From assembly GCA_044892525.1 (NCBI GenBank), contig CM097885.1, positions 14,696,001 to 14,760,000 of the forward strand: 64,000 nt of DNA, read 5' to 3'. Origin of the DNA: Schmidtea polychroa. Lineage: Eukaryota. A program made the translations under genes and the position numbers. The notes beneath the pieces are model-generated. The model ran no database searches, had not been told where the DNA came from, and saw only the letters and a program-made list of their open reading frames with translations. Positions 5,271 through 43,533 of this stretch are shown in pieces (position 1 is the first letter of the stretch; each line of letters opens with the position of its first letter).

Positions 5271-5602
5271 ATCGTTAGAACACAAAGACTATAAATTTCC
5301 CAGCTGTAATTTTAGTTTCATGAATATTGCTCCCTATTATAAATGTCTATATCTCTCACTATTTCACCGCCTAGATATAAATGCAGCCATTAAATTTGGA
5401 TGACTAGTTACCAGGGACTAAATCAATAATATCCAGCTACACTGTGTTCATTCGATTTATGAAACGAGAAGAAATAAAATATCCAATTCATCTTCATTGC
5501 ATAGTGTACTAAACCATAAAACACACGCTATCAAAATAAAAGATCGGATCGTTTGGAAGATTTATTCATATAATAGTTTGATATCTAACTTGATAAATAA
5601 CA

Positions 5603-5734
<132 letters not shown>

Positions 5735-11400: not shown

Positions 11401-13100
11401 CCCTTTCCAGCCCAAATTTTTTCAAAACAAAAAAAAATATATGCAGTAAGTAGGTACCAAAACTATTTATTTTATCATAAAAATATTTTACTTCATTTTT
11501 TTGTTGCCCCCTTAGAAAAAATCAGTATGATTCCATTTGGCAACATTGGGCACATAGGTACCATACGTAAGATGGATAGATGGTAAAAATAAAATGCATT
11601 TTTCTTTGTTGTTACTAGTTTTTATTGTGATATATTTTAAAACAATTTTTTTCTTTTGCAAGACAAAGTGCAACTTTACATTTATCACATTGTGTTCTCG
11701 AGTATGATGATTTACATAATCGGCAGCGCTGTTTTTGTTCCACATGACTTGGCCAATGTCCTATGCCATCGTACTGAACATCTACAGTAGGAGTTATTGT
11801 TGTTACACGTTGTTTTTTTGGTATACTGGGAACCGTATCTGAAGGTCTTCCTCGTTTACGTTCTGTACTGCCCTCCTTATCAAATAGACCGTAACTGCAA
11901 AAATACACTTAGGAGATAAATAGCAAAACATTCAAGCATACCACCGCCATGAGCAGATACGGTCGATGTAAGTAATCAAATTTCTAAGGCCTCGGACTAG
12001 ATACGGTCTTATCGCTAAGCAGAATGAAGGTTAATTGCAACTGCATACAGTTGACGCCTCTAACTCGATTTTTGTAGTTTTGTCAGTTACGGTCTATTTG
12101 ATAAGTAGGGCAGTGTAGACTTGCCAACTAACAACAGGCCATTCGCAATTTCTGCTTGAAATTTTATAAGTGGCATATGTTTATTGCCATTCTGTTGGCA
12201 GTGTCGTCTATACAAAAGCCAAGAATTAACGATACAAATATTTATGAAGTGAAATATTATTCGTAAATAGAACCTTTTGCCCTTTATATTTATACGATAG
12301 AGTTCTACGAGCATATCGTGAAGATCGACACCTCCCATAAACATATTGTATTCTTTTACAATGGCTGGTCGTTGGATGTGTACATATTTTTTGGAAGCTA
12401 ATGACCATCTTTTGATGGTATCAAATGGTAAATGCCCTACATAGTTCGATGCCAAATGAACTGGTTTGTTATCTAGCCATTTTGTCACAGTAATGTTATT
12501 TGTAACGTCTGTTCTGAAGTCAAACGATCCTCTGCCTCGTCGTTTTAGAATGGAGTCCGCTTCTAAATCTATGCCAGGCATACGGCATGCACGCACTGTA
12601 CCAGTAGCCAAAAAACCTTTTTCATTCAGTGCAACTAATAATTTATGAGATGTGAACCAGTTGTCCATGAACACTTTGAAATTTTTATTTGGTTCTAAAT
12701 TTTCCAACAAGCGAAGAACAATGTGGCCACTTATACCCAAAGTACTCTCAGTTTTTGCGGTTCCTTTTCCAACATAAATTTCGTAGTCATATATGATACC
12801 ACTTGCCCCTGCACGGGCAAATACTTTGATGCCCCACTTGTGGGGTTTATTCCTTATATATTGTTTCAGAGAGTTTTTACCTTTGAAAGGTATCATTATT
12901 TCGTCAATTGAATTGAATTCTTCAGGTTCAATCTTACCCATATTATACTTCACCTGGTTTAGAAATGGCCTAATTTTAAACAATTTGTCGTGGGCTGGAT
13001 CGATTCTTGCAAAGACTTTGTTGTTATCATTGAAGTGTAAAAATGTTCTAAGTTTATCGAATCCTCTGGACAATCTTCGTCTCTGTGCTGTGTACATAGA
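11401..13100 (-). mobile_element. piggyBac (PGBD3-like) transposon, 5'-truncated, interrupted by a MITE
   Basis: TTAA+ccctttccagccc terminus at 11397-11413. Transposase motifs SIDEIM, KPHKWGIK, FMDNWF, MGGVD, and a C-terminal Cys-rich domain RCRLC..CDKCKVALC..CF. Confidence 0.9.
11868..12113. mobile_element. 246-bp MITE with 30-bp TIRs and 4-bp TSD (TGTA)
   Basis: ctgccctccttatcaaatagaccgtaactg ... cagttacggtctatttgataagtagggcag, with TGTA at 11864-11867 and 12114-12117. Removing it restores the piggyBac frame LLLVGKSTERKRGRPS. Confidence 0.9.
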
Positions 13101-14242
13101 TACTCTAACGAGATTCCCTGTTTTGTTACGTATTTTTTATTTTCAGCACGTCGGTTACGATATTGTGCACCAGACAGTCGTTTTCTCTTCCATGGCGATA
13201 GAAATAATGAGGAAAACTAGAAAATAAAATTTTATTATAGTTTATTATTTTTCTATAATTTTAATTCATTTTTTGTAAATAGAACTTACAAATTACATAC
13301 AAAAATATCTAAGTCAAATGATTATAAATGACTTTGTAGAAGAGTATAATTAAATATATTCAACAATTCACATTAATAATGAAAAATGAATGAAAGTTAC
13401 TTTATTCAAATTTATTAATCAAATAAAATTCAAAGATCACAAAGTTTTGATTAATTCCAAACTCACAAAATTAAACGTTTCCAGAAATTCGATAATCACA
13501 AAATATCAAGATAAACAATTCCCAAGAAAGAAAGAAACGCCCACGCAGATGCTATTGTGTGTATATGTGTGTGTCAAATGCAGGGCAAATAAACCAATAG
13601 GTTAGGAATACCAGTAGATAGCTAATAGGCCGATATTTCTATGAGGAAAGAATCAAGTCAACATCTCTGAATAGCTGTACTCAATCATTAAAATCTCTGA
13701 AATTGCTGAAAAGTTTATTTTCTGTGTAAAAATCCTACCATTGATTGTTAAGTATAGGATATACTTCCCCCATCACTTCACTATCATTATAAAAATATTT
13801 ATCTGGTTTCATATTGTTACTTTTATCTTAAGATATCAATATCTTGGACACATTTTTCCCTTTCTAGTATATAAAATTGGTTCATCATCACTATCAAAAT
13901 AAGCCATCTAAAGGGTAATGGTTGACTATAAAAAGTAATTAAATGAATTGTTATGCCACCTTACTAGATATTATGATATTTGAGAAAATTTACAAGAGCA
14001 AAAAAACTTAAATTTAATCGATTGTAACAAATTTAAAATCTTGCGATATTGGAAAAATATCGTATCTTTAGAGAATTTTCATCTTGCATTCCATTTGAGA
14101 TATCCATAGAATATATATGTGCTTGCAAATTCAGATTGATAAAGAAATTACAATAATTTTTTCTTTCGTTGACATGCACTGCCCGACACAATTCATCTTA
14201 CATTATTTGAAATCCTACATATTGCAATTTTGATAGTGTAAA

Positions 14243-18664: not shown

Positions 18665-21600
18665 GTATCTTATATCCAAAGTTTTGTAATTCTTCCTTTC
18701 ATGACAATGATTGTCATAAAACTATGGAAAAATACTATGGCCAACCCCATAACCGTGTTATTTATTTTGTTTGCCCCATTTGTAATTCCACTGAAAAATT
18801 AAATTATTCTAACTTTTATGATCAACATAAAGATCATTTAAATCGATTTAATCTTTTGTAGAAAAAACAAATTTTTAAATTACCAAATAATTTCTCAATT
18901 AATAAAAGGAAATCTGATTTGCTAATAAGTAACCCTCGTCCATCTAAAATTAAAAATTTAAATAATAATGATCAAATTATTATTCTCTCGGATTCTGAAG
19001 ACGATGATGTAGTTTTAAATAATATGGTAACTCTTCCTGATTTTGAAAATGATGTGGATATAGATTTTCTATCTGACTCTCAAAATGGAGTTGATATAAT
19101 AACTTTTTCTGACTCTGATGCCGAAATAATTAATGATAGTACGATACAATATGGTGGATCATTAGAACCGGTTGTAAATTATGATTTACGTAAATCACAT
19201 GCCATAGTTAAAATGATGGTTGAAAATTTAAATTTAAATTCTTTAACCGTACCCACGCCCTTAATTAATAAATTTAATAACGTTACCAGAGAAATGGGTT
19301 CTGTAAAGATTCAATTTTGTATAGAAGTGGAATTTGAAAAAGATGGAGAATTTCAATCTTTCGTCATTTCAAATTCTGCAAGACCCATGAGTGATACCTT
19401 TTTAGATGAAGATATTGCTATTCTCAATGAGAAAATTACTTTAATTAATGAAAAGGGAAGTAATTGGATTATTAATAAAATTAAAGAAATACATTTTGTT
19501 ATTACAAAATTTTCTCAAATAAGTAGATTGAGTGGGAGGGGTTCTCTTCCAACTCCTAAATCATTATTAAATAAACATTGCGTAATAAATATTAACAATA
19601 CGGATGATTTGTGTTTCATCTATAGCATTTTGGCTATTTTGAAATACGATGACGTTGATGGCAATCATAGAAATCGAATTAGTAATTATAATTTGTCTGA
19701 TCTAGTCTTTGATCCTTCTGACTTACCGATGCGTCTCTGTAATATACCTAAATTTGAAGATAAAAATCCAGGGCTTTCGATTAATGTTCTTGCATACGAT
19801 GAGGATGCTTTAGTGGATATTTTAAATAATTCTGAAGTATTAAAACATCCTTATGTTGACATCATACATAGATCGAAAGTTGTAGGCGGAAGACCGATTA
19901 ATTTAATTTTGTTGGAAAGCAGTGATTCTTTTCATTATATAGGAGTCACTAATCTAGATAGACTTTTAAATTGTCGTAATTCTACTGTTACTAGTACTCG
20001 AATTCAAAGTCTGTGGTGTAATCGCTGTTTAAATGGCTTTCGTACACTTGAATCTTTAGATAAACATAAAGGTTTATGTGAGAAAAATCAATTAGGAACA
20101 ACTTTATATACTTTACCATTAAATAAGAATTTATATTTTAATGATTGGTCTAAAACAGTTACTCCCCCTTTTGTGGTTTACGCTGACTTTGAGGCTATCT
20201 TACCTACTGATAATAGATACTTTCAAAGGCACTTGCCGATTTCTGCAGGTCTTTTGCTAATAAATAATTTCACAGGGACTAAATTATATAAAAGTTTTTT
20301 AGGGTTAGATTGTATTGTTAGTTTCCTTAAAGAGATTGAAAAAATTGGTATGAAAACAGTTTTACCTTATTTTTATAAAAATTCGAAAAAGAAAATTATT
20401 TTTACAGATGCTGACCTTATTTCTTTTTCTTCCGCAGTTATGTGTTATCTTTGCAAGAAAACTTTAGTAAACCCGACTAAAGATCATGATCACTTTACTG
20501 GTAAATATTTGGGAGCAGCTTGTTCAACTTGTAATAATTCTCGTCAAATAAGATATGAATTTCCAATTGTTTTCCATAACTTGCGAGGGTATGATCTTCA
20601 TCATATCCTCAAATACGGATTGAGTAGCTTTAAATCTTGGAATATTTCATGCATTCCAACGACAACTGAAAAGTTCTTAACATTATCTGTGAGAATAGGT
20701 GGTTTAAATATTAAATTTATCGATTCCTGCCCATTTATTAATAGTTCGTTAAATGACGCTGTTAAAACTCTTACTAATTTACCGATAACACGATCAGAAT
20801 TTAGGGGAACCATTGTTAATAATAAAGGAATTTTCCCATATAATTTTGCCACTAGTCTTGAAGTGCTTCGGTCAACTCCCCAATTACCGCCAATTTGGGA
20901 TGGTGTTACTGAAGACGAATATTCTATGGCTGAAATTATATGGAGGGAAACCAACTGTAATAACCTTTGTGATTATATGATGGTCTATCTAAAACTAGAT
21001 GTCTTTCTTTTAGCTGACTTTTTCCAGCAGTTTCGAAATAAATCTTTAGCTCATAATCGTCTTGAACCTTTAAACTTCTTGGGCATTCCCGGTATGTCTT
21101 GGAATTCAGCTCTGATGACTTTAGACGAACCCATCGAGTTGATTCAAGACATGGAGATGTTTAATTTCTTTGAGGGTGGTATAAGAGGGGGGTTGACATT
21201 TGTAAACAAACATTATGTTAATACAAATGAAAATACTGAACTTCTATATATCGATATTAATAATTTGTACGGCTGGGCTCTTAGCCAAAAACTACCTAGG
21301 GGTGAATTTTCTTGGGTGACGGATGAGCCTGAATTAATTAATTTATTAAAAGACTGTGAATCTATTGATCTAGATTCACTTTCATATGGGTATACTATGA
21401 AAGTGGATCTAGATATTCCAACATCTATTCACGATAAACTTAATGATTTTCCGGTTGCAGCTGAAAAAATGTGTGCTCCAGGATCTAAAGTGGAGAAGTT
21501 GATGCTTACACGTTTACCCAAGAAGAACTATGTTCTTCATTGGAAACTTCTACAACTTTATCTTTCTCTTGGAGTAAAAGTTACTCAAATTCACAGGGCT

Positions 21601-22614
21601 ATCAAATTTCATCAGTCTACTATATTCAAAAATTACATTGACACAAACACCCAACTTCGAGCTGTGTCAACAAATACTCTTGATAAAAACTATTTTAAGC
21701 TTCTTAACAATAGTTTATATGGAAAGACAGTCGAAAATTTGAAGAAACGATTGAACTTGAGATTGTGTAACTCAGCTTCTAAACTGATTACTTATTCCTC
21801 TAAACCCACATTTAAAAAGACTTATAAAATAGATCATGACTTAATAGCCGTTCTATTAAATAAGGATTCAGTGTGTTTGGATAGACCTAGTTACATTGGT
21901 CAATCTGTACTGGATCTATCCAAATTACGGTTGTATCAGTTGCAATATATTGATTTACAAAAATATCGAGATGATTTTAGCTGTGAAATCAATATTATTG
22001 CAGGTGACACTGATTCCTTCTTTTTAGAGGTTAAAGGATGCAAATTAGATGTGCTTTTACCAGCTATGGTAAGAGATAACATGCTGGATACATCGAATTA
22101 TGATTCATCTCATGAATTATATTCAAGAGCTCTTGATTCCGTCATTGGTAAATTCAAAGATGAAAATAAAGGGGGTAGATATAAGGAATGGGTGTTTTTA
22201 AGGCCTAAATGCTATAGCATTTTGGGTGATAAAGAGAGCAACAAGGCTAAGGGAATAACATTGAAGGGTACCGACTTAAAACATCAATCGTACCTTGATT
22301 GTTATCATAATAATTCGATGATTTCAGTACCACAATCTCGAATAGTAAGTAAAAATCATCAGTTATTCACAATAAAAAATATAAAATTAGCCCTAACTAA
22401 TAATGATGATAAGAGGCATTGGGTAAATAAAAATGAAAGTGTAGCATATGGTCATTATAAAATAGTTAACACGGTTATGGGTCATAGTAACAATGCTGAA
22501 GTTAGTGATCCGGGCGAAGAAAATGATCAATACGTTCAACCATATTTCCCAAATGATGATTATTGTCACCCACACTTTCCATATGAAAGGGAACATCAAT
22601 ATGTTCTTGAATAA
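18665..22614 (+). CDS. polB: protein-primed family B DNA polymerase, copy 1 (one in-frame TAG at 18859 in the N-terminal extension)
   Basis: Exo motifs YADFE, FHNLRGYD, YLKLDV. Pol motifs YIDINNLYG, KLLNNSLYGK, AGDTDS, LRPKCY. EndoVII-like CYLC..DHDHFTG..CSTC insert. The frame continues upstream of the called ORF (KFCNSSFHDNDC..CPIC) to a splice acceptor at 18664. Confidence 0.95.
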
Positions 22615-22926
22615 ATTTTGTATTGAAATAAAATTTTATTTAATATAATTATTGTTTTAGTTCTTATTTGTATCATTTATTTTACGTTGTTATTGTAAAG
22701 TATTCTTTAGACTATTTTATTGTGAAATAGTCAAAGTTTTTATTGTTGCGAATTTTTTAGTTATTAAAAGGTTTTATTATTATTATTATCTGTGTGTGAA
22801 TTATAACCGAGTGTTTATCACATTCATTGTCATCATTATAGTACTCGGGTTCAAAAATGTATGTATGACTTTTTCTTATATATGTTTATAATTCAATAAA
22901 TATATATCTATAATAAAATTATACAG

Positions 22927-23719
22927 AATTATGTAACACCATACCACCACCCCCTAGGGTACCCATACAAATATTACGTAATACTGTATATTTGGCTTGG
23001 TTTATACTCCTCACTTCTCACTACTCTATCAAAATGTATTAAATTTTTTCCATGGATATTTGGCTTGGTTTATACTCCTCACTACTCTAATGAAGTATAA
23101 TTATTACATAAGAGGTCAAAGGTCAATTATTATGTAAGGGGTCAAAGGTTAAATATGATGTAAGAGGTCAAATGTCAATTATTACATAAGGGGTCAGTTA
23201 TGACGTAAATTAAAAACCAATTATTACGTAATCAAAAATTTGATTGCGTCATTTCATATATAATTATGTAATTTTACAAAATTATGTAACACCATTCCAC
23301 TCCCTAGGGTATCCATACAAATATTACGTAATACTGTATATTTGGCTTGGTTTATACTTCTCATTACTCTATCAAAATGTATTGAATTTTTTCCAGGGAT
23401 ATTTGGCTTGGTTTATACTCCTCACTACTCTAATGAAGTATAATTATTACATAAGAGGTCAATTATTACATAAGGGGTCAAAAGTTAATTATGATATAAG
23501 AGGTTAAAGGTCAATTATTATATAATGGGGGGTCAATTATGACGTAAAATTAAAAAATCGGTTATTACGTATTTAAAAATATAATTACGTCATTTTATAT
23601 ATGATTACGTAATTTTACAAAATTATGTAACGTCATACCACCCCCCACTAGGGTACCTATGGGAATATTACGTAATACTGTATATTTCGCTTGGTTTATA
23701 CTCCTCACTTCTCACTACT
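22927..23719. repeat. internal tandem repeat (~350 bp x ~2.3) rich in AGGTCA and TTACGTAA motifs
   Basis: Units start with aattatgtaac at 22927, 23280 and 23621. Confidence 0.85.
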
Positions 23720-24744: not shown

Positions 24745-25209
24745 TTAATTAAGTGATAATAAAAAATCTAAAAATTCATTTCCTTCAATTATTGATTTAA
24801 TTTCAGATATGATATTATCAACTATACATTTGTAATCAATATTTTTTATTCCAAGAATTACTATCTTACCGCTAGCGAATATATTTACACACATAGGGTT
24901 ATATTTTATATATCTCAAAGCTGGAAATAATTCTGGTTCGTAAAAGCATGGTATTAATTTAGCCAATTTATTTAAATTACAAGAAAAACCTATATCGGAA
25001 GTTACGGTTATCGATTGTATTTCTAAATCATAAACATTATATTCACTAGCTTTGATTATTTCCTTACACCCCATAATTCTACATTTACCAGTTTTGAAAT
25101 ATATTATTGGATATTTTTTACTTCTATTGATGAGTTGTTGTGGTTTTCCCATTGGAAATATTATTTTTGATACATCAGCTTTTGCCCTGTAATTTATATT
25201 TGAAAGCAT
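24745..25209 (-). CDS. TATA-binding-protein-like protein (Maverick-encoded)
   Basis: Repeat 2 has YEPELFPAL and IFASGKIVILG (TBP: YEPELFPGL, IFVSGKVVLTG). Repeat 1 has NINYRA..IYFKTGKCRIMGCK (TBP: NIVSTV..IFSSGKMVCTGAK) and is shortened. Confidence 0.85.
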   Translation of the reverse strand: MLSNINYRAKADVSKIIFPMGKPQQLINRSKKYPIIYFKTGKCRIMGCKEIIKASEYNVYDLEIQSITVTSDIGFSCNLNKLAKLIPCFYEPELFPALRYIKYNPMCVNIFASGKIVILGIKNIDYKCIVDNIISEIKSIIEGNEFLDFLLSLN

Positions 25210-25315
25210 TTTAATGAAATAATTATAAAAAACTCAGTTATATATAGTTATTTTAAAAGAAGTTCATTTAAATTATCAATATAAACAATAATTATATATA
25301 GTTTAAATTTAAAAA

Positions 25316-25954
25316 ATGGAATTACGAAATGATGCAGTATACCAAATCGTTGGTCCGAGTAGTAGTGGAAAAACATTATTTGTTTGTAAATTACTAAAAT
25401 CTAATTTGTTCAAAACAAAATTCAACAATATTTATTGGCTTAGAGGCGCCGATAAAGAACATGGATTGACACAATCAAGTTTCTGTCAATTGAAAAACAT
25501 GAAAATAGTAAAGGATTTTGATAAAAACTGGTCAAATCGTTTGAAGAAAGATGATGTCATCATTATCGATGATTTGTATCAAGAAGCCAATAAAGAAAAG
25601 GATTTTAATAATTTATTCACAAAAATTAGCAGACATGTTGGTGTAACAGTTATTTTCATAACACAAAATCTATTTCATCAAGGTGGGGCACATCGAACAC
25701 GTAATTTAAATGTACAATATCTAGTTATTTTCAAGAATTCTAGAGATGCAACTGTCATTGATTTTCTTGGACGACAAGCATACCCTAATAACCGTAATTT
25801 TCTTATCAATGCATTTCAAGATGCTACGAAAATACCTCATGGGTATATATTTCTCGATTTCACACAACAATGTCCTGATGATATACGGGTAAAAACAGAT
25901 ATTTTCAACCCAAAAGGTGCCATGGTTTATAAACAAAGTTCAAAACAAATTTGA
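25316..25954 (+). CDS. FtsK/A32-like DNA packaging ATPase
   Basis: Walker A GPSSSGKT, Walker B IIIDD, and SRH..VIFITQNLF, as in Polinton ATPases. Confidence 0.92.
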   Translation: MELRNDAVYQIVGPSSSGKTLFVCKLLKSNLFKTKFNNIYWLRGADKEHGLTQSSFCQLKNMKIVKDFDKNWSNRLKKDDVIIIDDLYQEANKEKDFNNLFTKISRHVGVTVIFITQNLFHQGGAHRTRNLNVQYLVIFKNSRDATVIDFLGRQAYPNNRNFLINAFQDATKIPHGYIFLDFTQQCPDDIRVKTDIFNPKGAMVYKQSSKQI

Positions 25955-26459: not shown

Positions 26460-26687
26460 ATGGGTGCTAATCCTTCATTACCAGACATTAAATTTAATAT
26501 TAAATCTTCTTGTTGTAATGGAGAAGATTTGGACGAACCCCGAAGACGAAGCCGGTTTCGGTGGAGTGGCAAAATTAAACAAAAGAGTTCCGAATTCGAA
26601 AAAGGAAACCCAGAAGTGGTTATCAGACCAGCTTGCGTACAGTTTGAACAAACCAATGCAGAAACGATTCCCAACAAGAGTATATAA
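26460..26687 (+). CDS. small ORF overprinted on the integrase 5' end, with N-myristoylation motif
   Basis: MGANPS..SSCC. Starts 3 nt after the upstream stop codon. Confidence 0.45.
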   Translation: MGANPSLPDIKFNIKSSCCNGEDLDEPRRRSRFRWSGKIKQKSSEFEKGNPEVVIRPACVQFEQTNAETIPNKSI

Positions 26688-26903
26688 AACATGGAATAAA
26701 TGATTTATGGCAAATGGATTTGATGGAGATGATACCCTATTCGAAAATTAACAATGGGTATAAATATATTTTAACATGTATTGATGTATTCAGTCGGTTT
26801 GCCCGAGCAATACCCGTCAAGTCAAAATCTGCAGATGAAATGTCTAAAGCTGTTAATGATTTATTTAAAGATGGACATCCTAATAACTTGCAAACGGATT
26901 TAG

Positions 26904-26947
<44 letters not shown>

Positions 26948-27577
26948 TTAGGTAAAGAATTCTACAACAGTAAAGTCAAGCAAATCCTCAATAAATTGAA
27001 AATAAACCATTACTCAGTACATTCTCAATACAAAGCTGCTCATGTTGAAAGATTTAACCGAACATTGAGAGATAGATTAAAGAAATTATTCGTGCATCAA
27101 GGTAATAAAAAATGGGTACTGGTTTTACCAAAAATAATAACCAGTTATAATCATTCATCACATCGAGGACTGAATGGATTAAGACCGATTTATTTCACTT
27201 CAAAAACAATCTATTCTAAAAAACCTGTAAAAATTACAAAACCGAAATATAAAGTAGGTGACCATGTTAGAATTATTAAAATTAGTGCATCACCATTTAT
27301 TAAAAATTTCGATACAAATTGGAGTGATGAAGTCTTTATAATTTCAAAAATAAATACTAGCCAGAGTCCTGTAATGTATGTTATCAGTGATTATGATAAC
27401 AATATTGTACAAGGAAAATTTTATGAGCAAGAATTACAAGTTATTCCTCCTCCAAAAGTATTTAGAATTCAAAAGATATTGAAAACTAAAAAGGTCGGCA
27501 AGGATAAACAATACTATGTCAAATGGCATGGTTATCAAAACCCATCATGGATATCAGAAAAGGATCTAGTAAAGTGA
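26518..27577 (+). CDS. int: retroviral-like (rve) integrase with C-terminal chromodomain; frameshift ~26690; intron 26904-26951
   Basis: MEKIWTNP..GFGG, DLWQMDL, CIDVFSR, QTDLG/KEF, ERFNRTL, KYKVGD.VR, and chromodomain YYVKWHGY..SW. Confidence 0.92.
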
Positions 27578-28590: not shown

Positions 28591-28945
28591 TTCCGATATT
28601 ATTAGTATGTATAGTGATAGCCAATCTGGCGGTGAATTACCATATTTTATTGGTAAACAGTACGGATCAGGTTGGTTGAGAACAATTGGGAGATTTGCAC
28701 TTCCTATTCTTAAACGTATTGGTAGTTTTGGTATGAAAACTGCAAAAGATGTGATTATGAATGAACAGAAAATATTAGCATCCCTAAAAACAAATGCTTT
28801 AGCTGAGTTAGGTAAGGTTCTGCCTGGAGTTGCTGGTATGTTTCAAAAAGATGAGCCCCCAGTCCCAACTGCAAAACGTAAAGGACATGGAATATCACGT
28901 ATAAACAAACGAATGAAAGGACATGGAACTATATTTGCAAAATGA
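28583..28945 (+). CDS. pVI/cupiennin-like membrane-active virion protein precursor
   Basis: QSGG and QYGSG cleavage-like sites followed by the amphipathic WLRTIGRFALPILKRIG. Lies between the minor and major capsid genes. Confidence 0.65.
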   Translation: MANSDIISMYSDSQSGGELPYFIGKQYGSGWLRTIGRFALPILKRIGSFGMKTAKDVIMNEQKILASLKTNALAELGKVLPGVAGMFQKDEPPVPTAKRKGHGISRINKRMKGHGTIFAK

Positions 28946-30165
28946 TTTGTGGTAAATCCGAATTATGTATATTTGATAGACCGTCGCTCCAGGCTGTAAT
29001 AGAATTTGGGGCCTTTGAGGAAGTTTTTCCTATGAATTCAATTACCGATAGTAGAAATGATATCGAGTTTTATATTAATGGTTCGCAAACTGAATATTTA
29101 GATTTGAACGATACTTTATTGACTGTTCAGATCAAGGTTGTAGATAAAGATAGAAAAGTTTTAGATGCCAATGCGGATGTATTACCAAACAATTTCATGT
29201 TTCATACTCTGTTTAAAGATGCAGTGTTGGGATTTAATAATATCAAGATTGAGGGCGGAAATAATACATTCATTCACAAGGCTTTGATAGAAACTATTTT
29301 AAATTACAATTCCGATACTAAAAATACCTGTCTTACACCTATGGGTTATGCAGCAACAGATGATGAAAGAAAAAAGTGGGTTAAAGGCTCAAAATCATTC
29401 ACTATGTGCTCATCATTACAACTTGATTTTATGGATCAACCGAAATATTTGCTACCAGGAGTTAATGTACACATTAGATTGAAAAGGTCCGATTCTGCAT
29501 TATCTCTTACTAGTGCAACTGGTGCACCAATATGCCAATTAGTTGATGCAAAATTATTGGTGAGAAGAGTTCGAGTAGACCCGTCAGTATTAGCTGGTCA
29601 TCAATTGGGTCTTAATTCAAAACATGCAATTTATCCTTTAAAAACAAAGGAAATTGTACAATTTGCTATTGCTAAAGGTGCTTCATCATTCTATAAAGAA
29701 CAAATATTTGGTGACAGAAGAATGCCTAATTTTATTCTGGTAACATTTCAAAGTGAAACGCAATATAATGGATCTTATACTGCTTCCAGCTCAATTTTCA
29801 AAAATTTTGGTGTTACTTCATTGACTTTGTCGAAAAATACTTATTATAGAGAAACATATACTCAAGATTTCGAAAGCGATAATTACTGTGCGACATATAT
29901 GCAGAGTATTGTTAGAAATCTGGGTTACTTAGATAAAAACTTGAATTGTGGAATAACTCTAGAAGAATTTAAAAGCAAATATCCATTTTTCACATTTGTT
30001 TTAGCTCCGGATTTTGATTTAAATCAGAGTCAACTACCACAAAACGGGAATTTACGACTGGATATTAAGTTTGCAAAGGCCATTACTGAACCGGTACATG
30101 TTATAATATATGGAGTATTTGAAAATGAAGTTCAAATTACTGCAAATAGAACTGTGCTAGTATAA
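28942..30165 (+). CDS. major capsid protein (double jelly-roll, hexon-like)
   Basis: KSELCIF, IEF.I.G...EYLDL..T.L, HTLF, QPKYLLPGV, GNLRLDIKFA. Overlaps the upstream gene at ATGA. Confidence 0.9.
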   Translation: MICGKSELCIFDRPSLQAVIEFGAFEEVFPMNSITDSRNDIEFYINGSQTEYLDLNDTLLTVQIKVVDKDRKVLDANADVLPNNFMFHTLFKDAVLGFNNIKIEGGNNTFIHKALIETILNYNSDTKNTCLTPMGYAATDDERKKWVKGSKSFTMCSSLQLDFMDQPKYLLPGVNVHIRLKRSDSALSLTSATGAPICQLVDAKLLVRRVRVDPSVLAGHQLGLNSKHAIYPLKTKEIVQFAIAKGASSFYKEQIFGDRRMPNFILVTFQSETQYNGSYTASSSIFKNFGVTSLTLSKNTYYRETYTQDFESDNYCATYMQSIVRNLGYLDKNLNCGITLEEFKSKYPFFTFVLAPDFDLNQSQLPQNGNLRLDIKFAKAITEPVHVIIYGVFENEVQITANRTVLV

Positions 30166-30576
30166 ATGTATACAGAAACACAAAAAGTTGTCATGGAGTA
30201 AGTTTTTGATACTGTTTAATTTTATTAAAGTAGTTCTGTTCAGGTTAATCGAATTGGAAAACAAATATTAGGAAATGAATTTATAGGTGTTTTTCCTCTC
30301 GATAAAATTCCTTATTTGAGCAATAATCAAGCCATAATCGTCAATACTCATTCATCTCATCTTGGTGGAGAACATTGGATAGCTATATATGTGAAACCTA
30401 GTAATATATTCGTATTCGATCCTATGGGTTTCTATTATCCTGCTTTGTTGATATCAAAACTTCAAACAATTGGGAAACCTATTGTATATAATAAAACTAT
30501 GTTTCAAAATCCATTGACTCAAACATGTGGTCAACACTGTTTGGCATGGTTGTTGTATAAAAAATTTGATGGTTAA
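30166..30576 (+). CDS. adenain-like cysteine protease (probable 33-nt intron 30198-30230)
   Basis: FIGVFPLD, IVNT..GEHW, FDPMG, Q...TQTCGQHC catalytic motifs. The ATG directly follows the capsid stop, and splicing removes an in-frame TAA. Confidence 0.85.
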
Positions 30577-30934: not shown

Positions 30935-31273
30935 ATGAACAACAACAACAACAATATTCAAAGAGTTGACGGAAAGATCGTTGGAGGAATTAATGGTAAA
31001 TTTATTATTTTATTATTTTATTATTTTTAATATGATTATTAGGTACTAATCAACAAATTAAAATGAATATCGACGGACAAGCTGTAGACATGAATAGAAT
31101 AAATGGTAATAGTTTACTATTATAATCATTATTATTTTTATTATGCTTTTAGATGGAAATGTAATAAATACTTCTGCTGGTTCTGATGCTGGAAAATTTC
31201 TTTCGAAAGGACGAAAATGTAAGTATTTATTTATTGTTATAAGTTTTTGAGGTTTTTAAGTTCTTTAAACAAT

Positions 31274-31315
<42 letters not shown>

Positions 31316-31962
31316 TAAAAGAAGATTATAAAGAAACTTATGAAAAGAAGATTTATTCATGAAAAGAAGATATTTTAAAAGAAGATTTATTTATAATGAT
31401 TTTGAAAGGAATATTTATGAAAAGAAGATTTATTCATGAAAAGAAGATTTATTTATGATGATTTTGAAAAGAAGATTTATTTATTTATTTATGATGATTT
31501 TGAAAAGAAGATTTATTAAATATGATGATTTTGAACATTATAATTAATAACTTTTATATATTATTTATGAAAACGAATTAAATTATATATTTTATAATAT
31601 TTTTTATAATATTTTTTATAAGATACTATTTAAAAGACAATTTTGAATAATATCTTACGAAAAATATCTTAAACTTTAAAAATGATTATTATCTTAATAT
31701 TTTTTAAACATTTTATGATAAAAATATTTTCATAGGTTTGAAATACCAAAACTTTTGCAATAGTAAATATCATAATGACTGCGATGATATAATGGAAAGA
31801 TATTATAGTCATAAATATAACGGTGTCACCTACATCCTATGCCCTAAATGTGAGGTTATTGAAGTTATAACGTATAAGGAATTTTATAATAAGCATAGAC
31901 TCCATCTCCAACAATTTAAACCTTCTAAGAAGTCTCTTTTCTATAGCTTATATGAATCGTTT

Positions 31963-32023
<61 letters not shown>

Positions 32024-35000
32024 TCAACAGCAATAATAATAATATCAACAGCAATAATAATAATAATATCAACAACAATAATAATAATAATATCAACAGC
32101 AATAATAATATCAACAACAACAATAATAATAATATCAACAGCAATAATAATAATAATATCAACAACAATAATAATAATATCACCAACAATAATACTAACA
32201 ACACCAATAATAATGATATAAACGAAATAACTAAACTAAAAGATCAAGTAAATAAATTAAATGATCAAATAAATAATCTAATTAATATGAATAAAAGAAA
32301 AAATAATGAAAAAATAAATTCAATACCAAGTAAAAAATCTAAAGTTATTGATGTAATTACAATAAGTGATGATGAAATAATCAACATAAGTGATGATGAA
32401 ATTGATAATAGTAGTAGTAGTAGTAATATTTATTATAATAATGGTAATAATAATAATTATAATAATATTAATCAAATAGGTTATGGTGTCGTAGATGTCA
32501 CCAGTGATTTAAATAATAATCATATTATATTAAAAATGGACGTTTCGTCTTTAGATTTAAAAACGGTCTCTGTACCAGACATTTTAATAAATAAATTAAA
32601 ATTATATGTAAATAAATTAAAATTATATGTAAATAAATTAAAATCATGTAAAATTCAATTTTGTCTAAAGGTGGAATTTATAAAAGATGATGAGTTACAA
32701 TCTTTTGTAATCTCGAATTCCGCCCGAGTTTGGAGCGATACATTCATTGACGAAGGTATTGCTCGTTTAAATGAAAAAATTATTAAAATTAATGAGAAAG
32801 GTAGTAATTGGACTATCAATAAAATAGAATACATAAGCTTTGTTCTGACTAAATTTGCTGAAATAAGTCGGTTAAGTGGTAGAAGTTTTATTGAAACCCC
32901 AAAATCTTTAAGAAACTTAAGCTGTCTCGTTAATGTAGTTAATAATGACCACTTCTGTTTTTTGTATAGTTTCTTGTCAATTATTAAATATGATAGTATA
33001 AATAGGCAATATAGAAATCGCCCTAATTCATACAATCTTTCTGAAATTAAATTTGATCCTAATGATATGCCGATGAAACTATCAAATATAAGTAAATTTG
33101 AACAACAAAATCCAGGTTATAGTATAAATGTTCTTACTTATAACGAAAAGGCTTTGATTGACATTTCCGATGAAGATGCAGTTATGAAACATCCCTTTAT
33201 TGATATAATATACAGGAGTAAGATAGTAGGAGCCATACCTATCAATTTATTATTAATTGAAAAGAATGATAATTATCATTATCTTGGAATCACAGACCTA
33301 AATAGATTCCTTAATTGTAGGAATAGTTCAATCACTCCTGTTAGGATTTGTAGTCAGTGGTGCCCTAGATGTTTAAACGGTTTTAGAAATGATGACGCTT
33401 TTAATAGACATAAGGGTCTTTGCGATAAAAATCAGCTTGGTACTACCTTGTACACATTGCCTAAAAATAAATATTTAGAATTTACTGATTGGAGTAAAAC
33501 AGTCACTCCTCCCTTTGTTATTTACGCTGACTTTGAGGCTATCTTACCTAAAGACACTCGCTACTTTCAACGTCATCTGCCTATTTCTGCCGGTATGCTT
33601 TTTATTAATAATTTTACGGGCGTAAAAATTTATAAGTCGTTCACCGGTTTAGATTGTGTCGATCAATTTCTTACTGAAATTGAAATGATAGGGAAATATA
33701 TTGTAACTCCTTATTATTATAAAAATTATCAAAAGAAAATGATAATTACAGATGAGCAACAATTAATGTTTGAAAACAGCACATCATGCTATTTGTGCAA
33801 TAAGCCTTTAGTTAGTCCAGTTAGGGACCATGATCATTTTACAGGTCTATATCTCGGTGCCGCTTGTACAACTTGTAATCTGTCGAGGCAAATTAGACAT
33901 ACCCTTCCTGTAGTATTTCATAATTTAAAGGGTTATGATCTGCATCATATCTTGAAATTTGGCCTTTCAAAATATCATTCATGGAATATTAGTTGTATTC
34001 CTTTAACCAGCGAGAAATTCCTTAGTCTTTTTGCTAGGATTGACTCATTAACTGTTAAATTTATAGACTCTTATCAATTTGTCAGCGAGTCTTTAAATAA
34101 TGCTGTCAAAACTTTATCATCTTTACCCTTGACCGAATCAGAATTTCAGGGTACAATAATAACTGCAAAGGGGATTTTTCCTTATGATGCCGCAACTTCA
34201 TTAGAGGTTTTACATAACACTCGTCAGTTACCTCCTATTTGGAAAGATGTGACTCCCGCTGAATATGAGACAGCTCAGTGAATTTGGGTTGAAACTTCAT
34301 GTACTTCACTTTTCGATTACATGATGGTTTATTTAAAACTTGATGTTTTCCTTTTAGCCGATTTTTTCCAGCAATTTAGAGCTAAGTCCATTGCTCATAA
34401 TCGACTAGAGCCATTAAATTTCTTAGGGATTCCAGGTATGTTTTGGAATTCAGCCTTATTAACTTTAAACTCTCCAATTGAGCTCCTCACCGATATGGAG
34501 ATGTATAACTTTTTCGAGGGCGGTATCCGTGGCGGACTAACTTTTGTAAATAAACATTATGTAAAAACAGACCCGGATACCGCATTGCTTTACATAGATA
34601 TAAATAATTTATACGGTTGGGCTTTAAGTCAACCATTACCTTGCAGTGACTTTGAATGGGCTACTGATGATAATTTATTAAATAATATAATTGTTGAATG
34701 CACAACGGTAGATTTAGATCTGCTTGATTATGGTTATACCATAGAAGTGGATTTAGAAATACCGACGTCAATTCACGACAAACTGGACGATCTTCCCGTT
34801 GCCGCTGAAAAGATGTGTGTACCGGGTTCGAAAATAGAGAAGCTGTTGCTTACACACAGCCCCAAGAGGAACTATGTTCTTCATTGGAGGCTTCTACAAA
34901 TATTTATTAAATTAGGTGTTAAAATATCAAAAACACATAGAGCAATTAAATTTAAACAAGATAAAATTTTCAAAAATTATATTAACACAAATACGGCGTT

Positions 35001-35919
35001 ACGAGCAGCGTCGACAAATAAACTCGATTAAAATTTTTATAAATTATTAAACAACAGTCTTTATGGCAAGACTGTTGAAAATCTTAAAAAACGTATTAAT
35101 TTACGTCTGTGTAATTCTTCACAGAGATTATTAACATTCTGTTCGAAACCGACTTTTCGTAAATCCACGAAAATCGATGATGACTTGATTTCGGTTTTAT
35201 TGAGGAAGGACATAGTGTGTTTGAATAGACCTAGTTACATTGGTCAAACCGTACTTGATTTATCCAAACTCAGGATGTACCAGCTGCAGTATGAAGAGTT
35301 GCAAAAATATCGCGATGAATTCAACTGCGAAATTAATATCGTTGCTGGAGACACAGATTCCTTCTTCTTGGAAATTAAACATTGTAGTCTTGACATTCTT
35401 TTACCTGCGATGATTAGAGATCAATTATTAGATACTTCGAATTATGACCCAAATCATCCTTTATATAGTAGGAACCTTGATTCTGTCATTGGTAAATTCA
35501 AAGACGAGAATAAAGGGTTATTATATAAAGATTGGGTGTTCTTGAGACCTAAATGTTACATTTTGATGGGTGTTGAGGAAAGTATGAAGGCTAAGGGGAT
35601 AAGTATGAAAGATACTGGACTAACACATCAGTCGTATCTAGATTGTTATTTAAATGATAAAATATACACAGTCCCTCAGTTTAGAATAACGTCAAAAAAT
35701 CACCAACTTTTTAGTATTAAAAATAATAAAAGAGCCTTGACATGTAGAGATGATAAGCGAAATTGGGTGGATAAAAATCAAAGTTTGGCATATGGCCATT
35801 ATAGGGGCGGTGACACCGGTATATTTATAGATTCAACGGAAGCTATCTCAGCAGATGATACAGATGATTTCCATGATCCAGCAGATGATAATTATTTTGG
35901 ACATGATTATTTTCGATGA
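30935..35919 (+). pseudogene. polB: protein-primed family B DNA polymerase, copy 2; 4 exons; two nonsense codons (34279, 35029)
   Basis: Exons 30935-30995, 31043-31105, 31153-31218 and 31736-35919 are joined by phase-1 GT-AG introns. The ORFs at 31738, 34321 and 35185 share one frame. Same exo and pol motifs as copy 1, plus a poly-Asn tract. Confidence 0.92.
31316..31535. repeat. minisatellite (gaaaagaagatttatt) inside the long PolB2 intron
   Basis: Repeated aaagaagattt units. Confidence 0.75.
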
Positions 35920-36663
35920 TGTGTTTAAATTATTTAACAAATGTATTAGTCATATTGTCTTGAATATTTTTTAACAGTAACTTTGTGAACAATTTTTATA
36001 CATTGTGTGTAATAATAATATGTTAAAGTTTTGTTAGTTACCTTTATGACCTTTACCCAGTGTGTTAATAAATTTTAGTGTATATTTAAAGTATAATTTC
36101 TTTGTTAATGTCTTGAATATTTTTAGCAGTACATTTGTGACCTTTACCTTTGTGACCTTTACTTTTGTGAGCAGTACCCATAATAATAATAATAATAATA
36201 ATAAATTTAGAAAATGTGTGTTTTATTACATTGTTTAATAATACCCTTGCGAGTTGTTGAGCGTGACAAGTACCCTTGTGAGCAGTACCCATAAGGGGAC
36301 AGAATATTTTGTCGGATAGACTCGGAGTATATAGATTAATAATAATATATCAATAGCTATCGATGAGAACACTAACTTGTTGCGTGTGTGGACACTAATA
36401 ATATTTTTTATACCTTGTGTGTGTGACAGAATATCTTGTCTGATAGACTATATTGTGTGTAATAATAATTTTGACAACTTTTTCGTCAAAATAAGTTTTT
36501 TAAAATACTTAATATATTTAATGATTAAAATATAATAAATTTTAAAATACCGCAACGTAATATATTTTTTTAAAAATTTTTAAAAAATTAAAAAAAAATA
36601 CCCCCCTCCCCCGGGGGTATGACGTCATATGTCTTTGTTCCCGGGTCCACACAATACCCTACT

Positions 36664-38311
36664 TTTGCGCCATGGATTTTTTATGTAGATTGCCGACTAC
36701 AATTAATGGGAACAAACACATATTAGTTTTTAGCGATTACTTCACAAAATGGGCAGAGGCATTTCCAACTAAAGACGAAACAGCAGAAACAGTTGCTAAA
36801 TTACTCATAGAAAAAATCATATTTAAAATCGGTACACCGAGAAGACTATTAACTGACAAAGGGAAAAATTTTATAAGTGAGACAATTAAAAGGGTTGCCC
36901 CAATTTTCAATATGCATAAAATCAATACAGCTGGTACCACCCTCAAACCGATGGATTAGTAGAGAGGTTTAACGGGACATTATTAAGTAGATTAGCGGTT
37001 TTTGTGGGAAAAAATCAAAATGACTGGGATGAATATGTTAGTCAATGCACGTACATTCATAATATCACACCTAATGAAACTACTGGGTACTCACCATATT
37101 TCTTAATGTTTTTAAGAGAACCAGCAACACCAATCGAAACAATTTTTGAACCACGAGTATCACAATATTTAGATGCGCCAGATTATGTAACATTGATGCA
37201 AAAACGAATGCAAGAAGTGTATAAAGTAGCTAATCTAAAAGTAAAATTCAGACAAGAGCAATATAAAGCTGATTACGATAAGACATGTAAACCGCATACT
37301 TTTAAAGTGGGAGATAAGGTTAGACTTATGTCACCACAAGTAGGAAATGGAAAAACAACAAAATTAGCAAGACCATTTAAAGGTCCATACGAGGTAGTAA
37401 AAGTAGTGCACGAAAATTTACATTTACAAAGACACAAAAATGAGGACCCTATTATAGTACATGTTAACAGATGTAAACTTGCAGAAACAGAAATAACAGT
37501 AGAACCACCCCATAAATACGGTTTACGATCACAGAAAGGGTTGATGATGTCAATAATTTTTCTAACAATTATTGGACTTGTTAATTCAATCGATATTAAA
37601 TATTTAACAGAATTTATAGGAGATAAAGAGATCCTAATAAACATTTCACCATACGAAATCAATGTATTTAACTTAAATAGAATGCCAATAAGGGATTTAT
37701 ACCTAGAAACAACCAATGATACACCAATCAGACTAATGGAGAAAAGGGAAGAAAGATCCACTAATGAATTCGAAAAAGGGGATAGCGTTAAATTTATAAA
37801 CCTAAAACCCAACACAGAATACACCCTATGTGCACAATGGAACCTAGAGATGCATACATCACAAATAAAATGTAAAAAAATAACAACACTACAACTAAAA
37901 AAGCAGAAAATAACCAAACGAATTAACATAAGTACAATGCTCAAAACAACTATGTCAACTACTACCTTAAGCACAACAACTACTCAAAAAACCGTTCAAA
38001 CAATAACAAGCACAGATGTAACAACAGAGTACAGAACAAGAAAACAAGCACATATAAAATCTATAAGAGCAACACCATGGCAAATAAAGGAAAAAATAAA
38101 GTTATCAATAGCAATAGCACTAGTATACAAATCTACAAAAAATACAAGTGGAAACGGCAGCGGTATCGGCACCGACTGGTCAATAGTATACCAGGGCAGT
38201 TTCACTTGGACAGAGATATACCAGGGCAATATACAATGTCCACTTGAGTGTAATAATTTCATAAAATGGTCAATAATATTAAATAAAATCACATATATCA
38301 ATATTTATTAA
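36664..38311 (+). mobile_element. Ty3/Gypsy integrase (5'-truncated by the Maverick, frameshift ~36935) fused in frame to a signal/FN3/mucin-like extension
   Basis: AMDFL..LP, DYFTKWAEAFP, TDKGKNF, YHPQTDGLVERFN, TGYSPY, FKVGD.V, FKGPY. Then hydrophobic MMSIIFLTIIGLVNS, NLKPNTEY and a Thr-rich tract. Confidence 0.88.
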
Positions 38312-38407
38312 AAAAATGCGTATAAGGTTAAACCCACAATGCGCAATCAATATGTATATTTACATTTCCTTTTTAGAACAGAAATCAATAGAATAGCAAT
38401 ATCGACA

Positions 38408-40331
38408 ATGCAATCCAATTTCCCAAACAATCAGTTCAACAATCAACAATCAATGAAAAAATATTCATGTACAATCCATAAACATTATCATAGTTTTTAT
38501 AAGAATCTCCAAAACAAAATCAGTACAGATGGCTCACCCATAACAATTAGAAGCTTCCCAAACCAAGTCTGCATACCCAACGACATGAAAATTGAAATAG
38601 AAGAAAGAGAGATGCATTTGATCAAATTCAACGAAGCTCGAAGAGTCAAGCTAAGAGAGCTGATCGGGATATATGATCATTACCCTAATGTCGAAAATGC
38701 AGTAAGAGAGGGAAAAAGGTACCACGTCGTATCTTATTCCATATGACCAAAACAGAGGTCTCAATATGTCAGCAGAAGATTCCAATAATCACAACAAGCA
38801 ACTGTACAACGGTCATGAAGACCATCAACAACAACCGAAGCATGCCAAATGACTTCAATGAGCTGACAGTGCGAATGAACAACCTACCCTGTGTAATAGC
38901 CATCGAGGTGCTATATATCCCAACAATTCCAAACCCATTCAGAGAGCTCCAATTAATTAAATCCAACATCATAGTATATCAAGATTTCATAACAAAGAAA
39001 GTGTCATTCACACATCAAGATCTCCCCATACCCGAGAGACAACAGAAAATTGTATTCGTAGATGTCAAAGAGGTATGCGACATCAACAACAACCTCAGAC
39101 CTGTGGAGGTATGTATCCGAAATTTCCGCGGAGAGATTATATACAGAAAACAAATAACACCCCGAACAAAAGTGTGGCACTATTATCCCGAAAAAACAAA
39201 AGCAGATCGAGATTCAATCAGAGGGAACGAGGACGAATATCGAGCTTTGGTAGATATACAAGATCTACTCCTCGAAAAAATAATAGTGGGTTCGACATCA
39301 TGAGCAAGCTGAGAACTCTGACATTAGATTTATACAATATCATGGGAGTGAGGGAGATGGCAGCAGATAGATTTAAGTGCTCATTCGTAAAGAACATCGC
39401 ACCACACAAAATACGATTATCAAACCTCGCATTCCAAGTGATAGCAACCCATCAAAAATGGCGAAAGAACAAGAAAATCAATGAGATCCTGAAAAGACCA
39501 GAACCATTTTCAACAGAAGATACCACCCTCATTTTAAAGGTGATTTACCAAATTGTGGAAAAACAATGGGAAGAAGTCATACATTGGGAGATGACACAAT
39601 TTCAAAAAGACGAAAATAACCAGGGCTATCAACTCAGTGAGAGGAGAGAAACCAGTGAGGAGCCAGAATTAGACGATAAAGATATATAAATCGAGCCATC
39701 GCAAGTAGAATTAAAATTTCGAAAAGATAGAAGGCGAAGAACATGTGAAGACGAGTTAATGGACGACGATAGCGACGACGATCTTATTTTTGTGAAGCAA
39801 GAAAATAGTACAATTCAGCCTACAACTATCAAAAGAGAACCAGGGACTAGCAGTAAATTTGGAGAGATACAATGCGACCTGGATTCAGACAAAGAATATT
39901 TCTCAATAGAAGAAGAGACGGAGGACGACTATAAAATGCAAATAGAAGAAGTAGAGGTGGAATTGGGACCAGAGCCAAATATCGCGTTAGAAGAGCCGAA
40001 TTTTATAATTGAAAAGGACAAAGGTATGATCTCAGAGAAAGACATATGTCGTCATTTCGGAAGACGAATTAACGACGGAGACATACTGAATTTGGCTTTG
40101 GAAAAAGGATTTCGGAGAACAGTGATGAAAGCAAGTGATTGTGAGATCGAATTAGTAATCTGTGATAAAGGTAATGAGGACATTACCTTGACGGCCCTGG
40201 GAGGAATGTTGGATGACAGGGGTCGAAGAATTGAAAAATTCGAGTTAACAAAGTATTATCAAACAGGCCCGAATCGATACCGGGTGAATATATTCGCAGA
40301 AAGAAGACTGTTCCCAAACAATCAAGCGTGA
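38408..40331 (+). pseudogene. Gypsy accessory ORF (~640 codons, 2 frameshifts and 1 stop) with a REX4/ISG20-like DEDDh exonuclease fold
   Basis: IVFVDVKEV..VCIRNFRGEIIYRKQITP..DLLLEKIIVG/FDI..LRTLTLD..VRE..RLSNLA..STEDT aligns by eye to REX4. The ORFs at 39075 and 39759 share a frame. Splice acceptor candidate at 38376. Confidence 0.7.
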
Positions 40332-41024: not shown

Positions 41025-43533
41025 TTAAGGAACTGCCCATCTCTTAAGCCATTCAATTCGTCTGAGTTTCTTTGTCGTCCCGTCACTCAATTCCACCTGG
41101 TGTTCTGACAAAAACTTTGATATGACAAACGGACCTTCATACTGTAGTCCATCTTTGTCGCGATTTTGTGGTTCTTTCCGAACTAATACTTTCTCCCCCA
41201 CCGTGAAACATCGATTCGTTCTCTTCTCTGTTTCCATCTCTTTCATTCGTTTAGCTGCTTTCTCACTGTTCTCTCTTACCAATCTATGTATCTCAACTGT
41301 ATCCAATGCCGTCTGAGGCAATGTTGAATGAAGGTTAATCTTCCTCCCAAAAACAATTTCAAATGGAGAAAATCAGGATGACATCTTTACCATTCTTCTC
41401 TAATAATAAAAACCCATCTTCTAATTTTATGTTGTTATGCAAATTGAAAGGAAATTTCTTTTTATTCAAGTCATCTTTTTTCTCTTCTCCCTGTAACACT
41501 CTTGTCATGTGAATGAAATCTACATCATCTTGTTGCTTTTCTAAGAGTTTTGTCATCGACTCAGTCTTCTGTAATGAGCTGATATGTCTTACTCTGGCTT
41601 TTTCTTCTTTTGCGTCTTCATGTCTAGTCTGGCATTGTGCACATAACATCCCTTTAATCCTTGATATTCCGTCCGCATTTCCATGTTCCTCTCCTTTCCT
41701 ATATTGAAGATCGAAATCATATCCGGAAAGATTGGCTAGCCAGGTTTGAAATTGCGGGCTTATCGGTTTTTTTGTGTATCTCATGAAAACCAACGCCTTG
41801 TGATCCGTTCGTACTACAAATGACTTTCCGTATAGATATTGTTTAAAATACATTACATATTCGTGTATAGCAAGTAACTCCTTCCTAGTCACACAATAAC
41901 CTTTTTCATGCGCGGTCAAGTGTCTCGACCCATATGCAATTACCACTTCAGTACCATCTTCTTTAGCTTGACATAAAACTGCTCCGATGGCCCCAAAACT
42001 AGCGTCTGTATCCAGAATAAAGTTTCTATCCATTCTTGGGTAATCTAGAATTGGAGCTTCACACAACTTTGTTTTAAGTAATTCAAAACTATTGTTGCAA
42101 TCTTCTGACCAATTAATCTTTTTCTCGCAGCCGGACGTAGCTGCATGTAGAGGTTCCGCAATTTTCGCATAGTCTTTTATAAACTTCCTATAGTAATTGG
42201 TCATACCTAAAAAGGCTCTTAATTGTTTGGCGCATACTGGTATTTCTGCATCTTGAATCTCTTTAATCTTCTTGTCGTTCGTTTTTATCCCACTTTCACT
42301 TACAGTGTGCCTTAGGAATGTCAATTCTTCTTTATACAGATTACATTTTTCTGGGTTAATTCTCAACCCCGCTAGTTGAATTCTTCTGAATACTTCCTCT
42401 AATCGGTTATTGTGCTCCTCTTTGTCTTTTCCATAGACAAGAATGTCGTCGAGGTAGACAACAACACCCTTAAATAATATTCCATCCAACATTGAGTGCA
42501 TCATTCTTTGAAACGTCGCAGGGGCGGTTGCTAGTCCAAAAGGAAGTCGGTTAAAACAAAACTGTCCTTGCCTTGTACTGAAAGCCGTGACCTCTTGAAT
42601 TTCCTTCGCCATTCCAACTTGATAATATGCTTGACCTAGATCGATGGATGTGAAATATTTTGAATCTGCCAGACAATCCAGTAGAAATCGTGTATCTGGC
42701 ATTGGAAAAGATATCTTTTCAGTGATCGCATTCAACCCTCTATAGTCGACACACATCCGTATTGATCCATCTTTCTTAGCCACAATCACTAGTGGCGCGT
42801 TCCATGCACTTTTGCATTTTCTAATAACTCTCGCTTCTAATAAGTTTGTGACAAGTTCGTCAAGCTTTTGTTCTAAATGCATTGGTTGTCTTCTTGGCTG
42901 TAACATTACAGGCCCACCTACTATATTCATTTCATGCTGAACAACTTTCGTAAACCCGAGATCAAAAGTTGAAGCCATAAAAATACCTTTGAACTTCCGT
43001 AGCAATATGTCTAACTGTTCATTCTTCCGGTCTCCAAGCATTAATAATGCTTTCTCTTCTCGTTGTGAGTCCACATATGTCCTCCCTACTTGTGACGCTT
43101 CAATATTGTCTACCTCTACCAGTTGGATACCAAATCTCTCCATTGTATCTACACCCCCAATGAAATCTGGACGTATATCTTTGACAACTATAACATTAAT
43201 AATTCTTTTTTTCCCATTCCAATCAGCTTCTATCGTCATTGCTCCTAATGGTCTTTCCATTCCCGTCGAAAATACTCCACAAAGAGAAATTGTGCTCTGC
43301 TTCAACCTCGGTTTCCCGATCTTTGTCCAACTTTTTTCACTCATAACTGATACTGACGCTCCAGAGTCCCAAAGCATGTCAATCGTCGTCATGTTTATTA
43401 CAATCTTACTCCACTTTCTTCTGTCTGTCGTCTCATACATCTTCTGCATCATGTCTTCATTTCGCTTCTTTCTACTGATTATTGTGTCGACCCCACTGAC
43501 GAAATGAAAGCAATGGGATCGTCCTTGTTTTTT
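41025..43533 (-). CDS. pol: Pol (protease-RT-RNase H, then only the integrase C-terminus); expressed by -1 frameshift
   Basis: LWDSGA, CVDYR, LPFGL, YLDD, TDAS, ELLAI, TDH, ADGISR. The sequence jumps at ~41370 to SPFEIVFG..GPF. Confidence 0.9.

Follow-up and report, generated by a model that had tools for sequence, protein, structure and literature searches.

The locus raises the question of why a short, almost uniform triplet repeat interrupts the active site of a transposon integrase, and whether a spliceosome would treat it as an intron. It lies in a window of 64,000 nt (the whole stretch of DNA analysed), within an element which, given its integrase, ATPase, and protease matches together with a putative capsid and polymerase, is predicted to be a Maverick/Polinton in an AT-rich eukaryote (Table 1). 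The adenovirus-type protease has a Pfam Peptidase_C5 match above cut-off, and the 407-aa gene is conserved in the loci L001, L002, and L005. The long frame behind the leader is one which, by its motifs, we take to be protein-primed polymerase-like.

Table 1. Predicted features of the element and of the insert in its integrase gene
Feature	Position in window	Strand	Remark
TBP-like gene of the same element	24745..25233	-	Pfam TBP 5e-15
A32-type packaging ATPase, open frame	25316..25954	+	Pfam Pox_A32 above cut-off
Maverick/Polinton integrase gene (rve + chromodomain), broken copy	26518..27577	+	
Frame break upstream of first catalytic Asp	26680..26703	+	relatives stay in one frame; length difference in read contigs
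Junction repeat copy 1: upstream exon end + first three intron bases	26899..26906	+	
Candidate phase-1 GT-AG intron, 48 nt (3n, stop-free in frame)	26904..26951	+	inside Gly codon after second catalytic Asp
Pure (TTA)n microsatellite, 40 nt, interior of candidate intron	26907..26946	+	
Junction repeat copy 2: last five intron bases + downstream exon start	26947..26954	+	
407-aa gene, probable major capsid protein	28942..30165	+	label from size and position; Pfam gave none
Candidate protease-gene intron after fifth coding base, 33 nt	30198..30230	+	acceptor 30233 (36 nt) also in frame
Candidate intron 1 of polymerase leader, 47 nt, phase 1, TTA-rich	30996..31042	+	
Candidate intron 2 of polymerase leader, 47 nt, phase 1, TTA-rich	31106..31152	+	
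Protein-primed polymerase-like gene behind leader, two in-frame stops	31708..35919	+	Pfam: Endonuclease_7 only

As the original prediction had it, a segment with GT start and AG end separates QTDLG from KEF, and the break falls two residues past the second catalytic Asp of the integrase. When the frame 26648-27577 is read through the insert, QTDLG is followed by 14 Ile, one Leu, and GKEF, i.e., 16 extra residues with zero stops. Translation thus confirms the almost poly-Ile run that had been predicted beside this Asp. With the relative P0001 as query against PDB, the Asp of QTD (26897-26899) is aligned with the TD-G motif of retroviral integrases; from established knowledge of DDE integrases, we take it to be the second catalytic Asp. 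The exact direct repeat across both junctions, TTTAGGTA, is real and, at 8 bp, one base longer than the TTAGGTA first reported. Only the pure (TTA)n lies between its two copies, and its last two bases are in phase with the microsatellite. A flanking G/C-containing repeat of more than 3 bp was found at none of the four other (TTA/TAA)n runs (n of at least 8) within the window.

With its GT-AG ends, T-rich acceptor, and host-like size, the insert has the features expected of a U2 intron. The other introns of the window measure 44, 47, 47, and 47 nt; of the host range of 44 to 51 nt given earlier, 44 nt (RPS12) and 47 nt (the presumed RPS27) could be measured, whereas no 51-nt host intron was found. 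TTA-class triplets make up 91% of the insert and 24% of the two host introns. The TRAY branch-point word is absent from the insert and from the RPS12 intron too, and the donor of the insert reads GTAT, with GTAA in seven of seven comparison introns.

The integrase copy of the window is dead, being frameshifted upstream of its catalytic core and carrying private amino-acid changes. Its N-terminal part (26518-26703) ends in a stop, and the catalytic core, with the DDE residues at 26717, 26897, and 27047 and Pfam matches to rve (2.3e-08) and Chromo, runs in another frame; this change near 26690 had been missed by the original prediction. Five of the 40 variants listed are nearly private to this copy, and four of them alter the amino acid. 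The window copy is thus a fossil whose pure repeat may be functionless. With the gene frameshifted upstream, a dependence of integrase activity on splicing becomes moot here, and for the family it would be the ordinary consequence of any intron. A 75-aa frame beginning MG (26460-26687, plus strand) overlaps the integrase start in another frame and has weak matches at the same place in L001 to L005.

Candidate short introns are also found elsewhere in the element. The protease gene start ATG-NN-GTAAGT is common to the window, L002, and L005, at 58% amino-acid identity, and the donor position is conserved in both loci with a protease match. In-frame acceptors would give introns of 33 or 36 nt in the window and of 39 and 47 nt in L002 and L005 (intron regions 30193-30233, 5598-5641, and 5262-5313, respectively); in all three, the first Met of the unspliced protease comes after the catalytic His motif. 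As an example of an intron in a core gene, this candidate (33 to 47 nt) is arguably cleaner than the integrase insert. The two candidate introns of the polymerase leader consist of TTA-class triplets to 58% and 40% and have junction repeats of 4 and 1 bp. Since these other introns are TTA-rich without long junction repeats, TTA-richness of the insert needs no special origin. No sequence common to the introns of the window was found beyond composition, and the interior of the insert is a simple repeat, which is not what an introner would contain. As a separate observation, the leader region (30935-31218) contains three mini-exons of 61, 63, and 66 nt before the second polymerase, of which exons 1 and 2 are alike, and a third donor at 31219 opens into a repeat-expanded stretch.

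At the protein level, the match to four relatives stops at this Gly, and their tails differ. P0162, which is 0.90 identical over the 67-residue core piece and has its N-terminus in frame, shows an Ile-rich tail of 17 residues straight after this Gly and then ends. P0123 and P0163 end in Gly-KIII and P0127 in Gly-N, with a tail free of any Ile run, so Ile-rich tails occur in three of the four interrupted relatives. Judged by the genetic code, the first codon of each of the four tails begins with A, which fits a GTA donor; the tails are translations, and the underlying DNA inserts could be too short to splice. P0123, P0163, and P0127 form a clade (support 98/97) with open upstream frames. For the interruptions in P0162 and in this clade, a single origin survives the AU test (p-AU 0.48), though the best tree has two changes and one origin appears in only 8% of bootstrap trees. 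This careful tree has 24 rows and excludes P0122, which is identical to P0162, while a 100-row tree is a quick version. P0162 and its cluster mate P0122 are the only own-family proteins that were found, and neither is contiguous at the motif. Judging from these protein sequences, the interruption is probably common to sister and cousin elements rather than private to the window.

The four come from 10 rows flagged as interrupted among the 235 relatives scored. P0122 was discarded as a case of insertion, since it shows a deletion beginning at the same Gly; P0172 and P0146 carry plain substitutions, and P0129, P0250, and P0147 end flush, perhaps because their contigs stop there. In the quick tree, P0129 is sister to an uninterrupted protein and P0250 is unrelated. 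Protein ends do pile up at the motif (8 of 59 versus 1.7 expected, p 0.0003, or 0.19 after merging of cluster mates and window correction), and we rejected this statistic because distant representatives also end there (10 of 83).

Most relatives are uninterrupted. The motif is contiguous in 119 of 120 full-length relatives and in 225 of the 235 scored, 18 of the latter being at least 80% identical over the core piece. No comparable in-frame insertion in the motif was found among 400 proteins, apart from two weak alignment matches. A 35- to 95-nt gap pattern at the site, which fixes several codons and was sought in collections that interrupted relatives may fall outside, occurred once in the window and neither in viral nor in metagenome contigs. 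A scan for related loci confirmed none in viral contigs and returned at least 53 in metagenomes and three in genome contigs. No locus of the interrupted group was found among the 12 closest metagenome loci (of at least 53 listed) and the three genome-contig loci; the motif is uninterrupted in all nine of the closest readable metagenome loci among the matches listed and in two of the three genome-contig loci.

Sequencing runs provide a view of further copies. The family is very abundant: on 1.4 kb, run X1 alone places 16378 contigs, and run X4 places 2859. The read comparison covered four of 24 runs and skipped the repeat, dropping there 0 gap rows, 1 joint row, and 19 loose-end rows, and therefore a depth gap at that place carries no meaning. 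The overlap between adjacent contigs of run X12 is 30 (two of two checked): the left contig runs 30 letters beyond the donor, and two right contigs begin 14 letters before the exon of the acceptor. Depth right of the site is 20.5, and these two right-hand contigs alone give 20.4. Without an insert, the contigs would have to overlap by 44; since the observed overlap is 30, the X12 copy has at least 14 extra bases, if the contigs are assumed to form one path. At four of the seven codons where P0162 differs from the window, the X12 variants give the residue of P0162. Together, P0162 and the X12 geometry indicate an insert in another copy and thus speak against the possibility, raised with the original prediction, that all other copies lack it.

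Of the 40 listed differences between the X12 copy and the window, 23 are at third codon positions (p 0.001), as are 17 of the 28 downstream of the insert (p 0.003), these counts being taken from 40 of 159 rows. The bias implies that both halves of the gene diverged under coding constraint. If both copies inherited the insert, constraint on both halves would mean that splicing was required, because the tail of P0162 ends in a stop. The main form in X12 seems to be unspliced if X12 is RNA, a label that is a guess, and the search of sequencing runs returned no matching run on record as RNA. Transcripts retaining the segment, which would tell against an intron, are thus only weakly indicated by X12, where DNA would look the same.

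We consider it more probable than any other reading, at roughly 60%, that the insert is an inherited spliceosomal intron of one Maverick lineage whose interior slipped to a perfect microsatellite in a dead copy. The Leu-Gly codons that directly follow the second catalytic Asp form an AG|GT proto-splice site, and there the intron would sit. Its removal by the spliceosome of the host would leave working copies with an ordinary integrase, whereas an unspliced message would stop inside the intron, as the stop seen in four relatives suggests. Introns of the element are about 47 nt long and TTA-rich, and slippage in the dead copy may have produced the perfect (TTA)n, which by chance remained 3n and stop-free. 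According to the accessible part of one report (PMC5014332), stop-free 3n introns are under-represented in ciliates; if this holds here, the stop-free 48 nt of the window would be a decayed state, and the relatives would keep the stop. We infer, and do not observe, that one inherited intron lies behind all the interruptions and that purity of the repeat arose secondarily. Splicing likewise is inferred, given that no spliced junction was found in a dataset in which the repeat region was skipped. The notion of an older intron homogenised into a microsatellite, one of two origins offered by the original prediction, gains indirect support from the relatives interrupted at the same Gly in a lineage with other short introns. 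We see a slim chance that the host splices the integrase intron in some cells or conditions only, with retention as the default and the repeat length tuning or abolishing splicing copy by copy while the frame is unchanged; such copies would make up a natural allelic series for the minimal sequence that a spliceosome needs.

Among the rival explanations, a recent gain of the intron appears unlikely. On this view, the 8-bp site would have been duplicated at a staggered break, or when a truncated (TAA)n-tailed retrotransposon inserted, so that the two copies provided the donor and the acceptor around a (TTA)n filler; the insert would then have become spliceable and been inherited, to degenerate later in some copies, with the P0123 clade as a parallel gain at this proto-splice site. 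The anatomy fits a target duplication plus filler, down to the microsatellite phase of the last bases of the repeat; the two origins of the best tree agree with it, and old (ATT)n filler could underlie the Ile-rich tails of three of the four relatives. As far as the accessible texts go, new introns of Daphnia carry direct repeats and include parallel gains at one site (PMC4202315), and AGGT duplication can yield a working intron (PMC3265369). However, seven ordinary introns placed at the site would give junction repeats of 6, 7, 9, 9, 6, 6, and 6 bp, two of the seven reaching at least 8 bp, so the observed length does not exceed what splice consensus provides. Because ordinary splice sites here give 6 to 9 bp, the direct repeat is no evidence, let alone proof, of duplication, and the AGGT duplication with repeat expansion offered as the other origin draws no support from it. 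The tail of P0127, free of any Ile run, and the TTA-rich leader introns with their much shorter junction repeats also count against a recent gain.

Duplication of this AGGT site would itself create GT-AG ends. These could accordingly be a by-product if the insert were an unspliced, inactivating insertion in non-autonomous copies mobilised by intact partners, which we regard as quite improbable. X12 seems to retain the insert, and the splice junction is unseen where the repeat was skipped; the window copy is dead, its polymerase has stops, and most relatives are contiguous. About 1.3% of the 8-mers of the window contain AGGT, so that such cases would arise in a repeat-rich genome. What argues otherwise is that, downstream of the insert, two copies which carry it differ preferentially at third positions, that a second, diverged clade is broken at the same residue with upstream frames open, and that no contiguous family member was found among the proteins collected. 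A microsatellite insertion private to the window copy, or an assembly error, is very improbable: the repeat is perfect, the copy is decayed, and no insert-spanning read is displayed where the repeat was skipped, but P0162 and the X12 contigs suggest that another copy has an insert there as well.

If the lineage indeed has short host-type introns in integrase, protease, and polymerase, it would depend on nuclear transcription and on the intron size of its host, and host splicing would control integration. Annotation that expects single open frames would miss such elements or call them dead. If spliced, the insert would also show how little a natural splicing substrate can contain, namely scarcely more than GT, a triplet repeat, and TTTAG. 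The P-element transposase is controlled by splicing of its third intron, and production of a transposon enzyme would likewise need host splicing here; the regulated retention of the P element, though, is not among the features seen at this locus.

The element shares with vertebrate and nematode Mavericks a retroviral-like integrase with chromodomain, an A32 ATPase, and an adenovirus-type protease, and would also share a putative polymerase and a probable capsid. In the accessible parts of the reports on these, the core genes are intronless and nematode Mavericks have introns in cargo genes only (PMC8097293; bioRxiv 10.1101/2022.07.12.499685), whereas here the integrase, the protease, and the polymerase leader have candidate short GT-AG introns. 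The portions of PMC10748475 and PMC12220804 that were available likewise contain no spliceosomal introns in core genes. Our literature search, with supplements and most subscription papers outside its scope, found neither an intron in a Maverick integrase nor a triplet-repeat intron. Ginger1 DNA transposons, in the accessible text of PMC2836005, similarly have integrase-type transposase genes with canonical GT-AG introns at conserved positions, a likeness that leaves the active-site position aside; they differ in being cut-and-paste elements without polymerase or capsid, and that text describes no microsatellite-filled intron. The Daphnia introns and those made by AGGT duplication resemble the insert, in the available passages of PMC4202315 and PMC3265369, in their AG|GT site inside a Gly codon and short direct repeat; unlike them, the window repeat stays within splice-consensus length and has a triplet-repeat filler, and the insert may be older than the new introns of Daphnia. 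Dinoflagellate introners are also spliceosomal introns inside Maverick-like elements, but they form repeated mobile families with their own sequence, whereas the insert is a simple repeat (PMC11957031, accessible part).

More distant integrases offer a related observation. In P0289, P0290, P0301, P0307, P0337, and P0383, homology is lost at or just after QTD(AG) and an unrelated long sequence follows. They resemble gene models with a donor at this place, which suggests that the QTD(AG) motif may be a general proto-splice site.

The region around the integrase module looks nested and truncated, and no long inverted pair around the module was found in 12000-42000. The stretch upstream (18862-23719) holds another polymerase-like gene, in which an in-frame stop immediately precedes the long frame. 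Behind this gene, a 343-nt tandem repeat ends in what is, by its motif, presumably a Maverick-like terminus at 23719. As this terminus adjoins the integrase module, the elements may be nested or truncated. In the polymerase downstream, the second in the window, an Asn-coding (AAT)n expansion occupies 31965-32218 of the N-terminal part, and triplet slippage is common in the element. We take the frames at 36561-39689, 41025-44762 (minus strand), 58949-61408, and 12087-13136 (minus strand) to be LTR-retrotransposon-like gag/pol frames and a piggyBac-like transposase frame; the only Pfam match among them is rve at 36561-36956. Amid this dense transposon debris, two host genes have one short intron each: RPS12 (54740-55160, plus strand), supported by PDB matches, with an intron of 44 nt at 54956-54999, and the gene at 57334-57675 (minus strand), presumably RPS27 by its motif, with an intron of 47 nt at 57623-57669 (minus strand).
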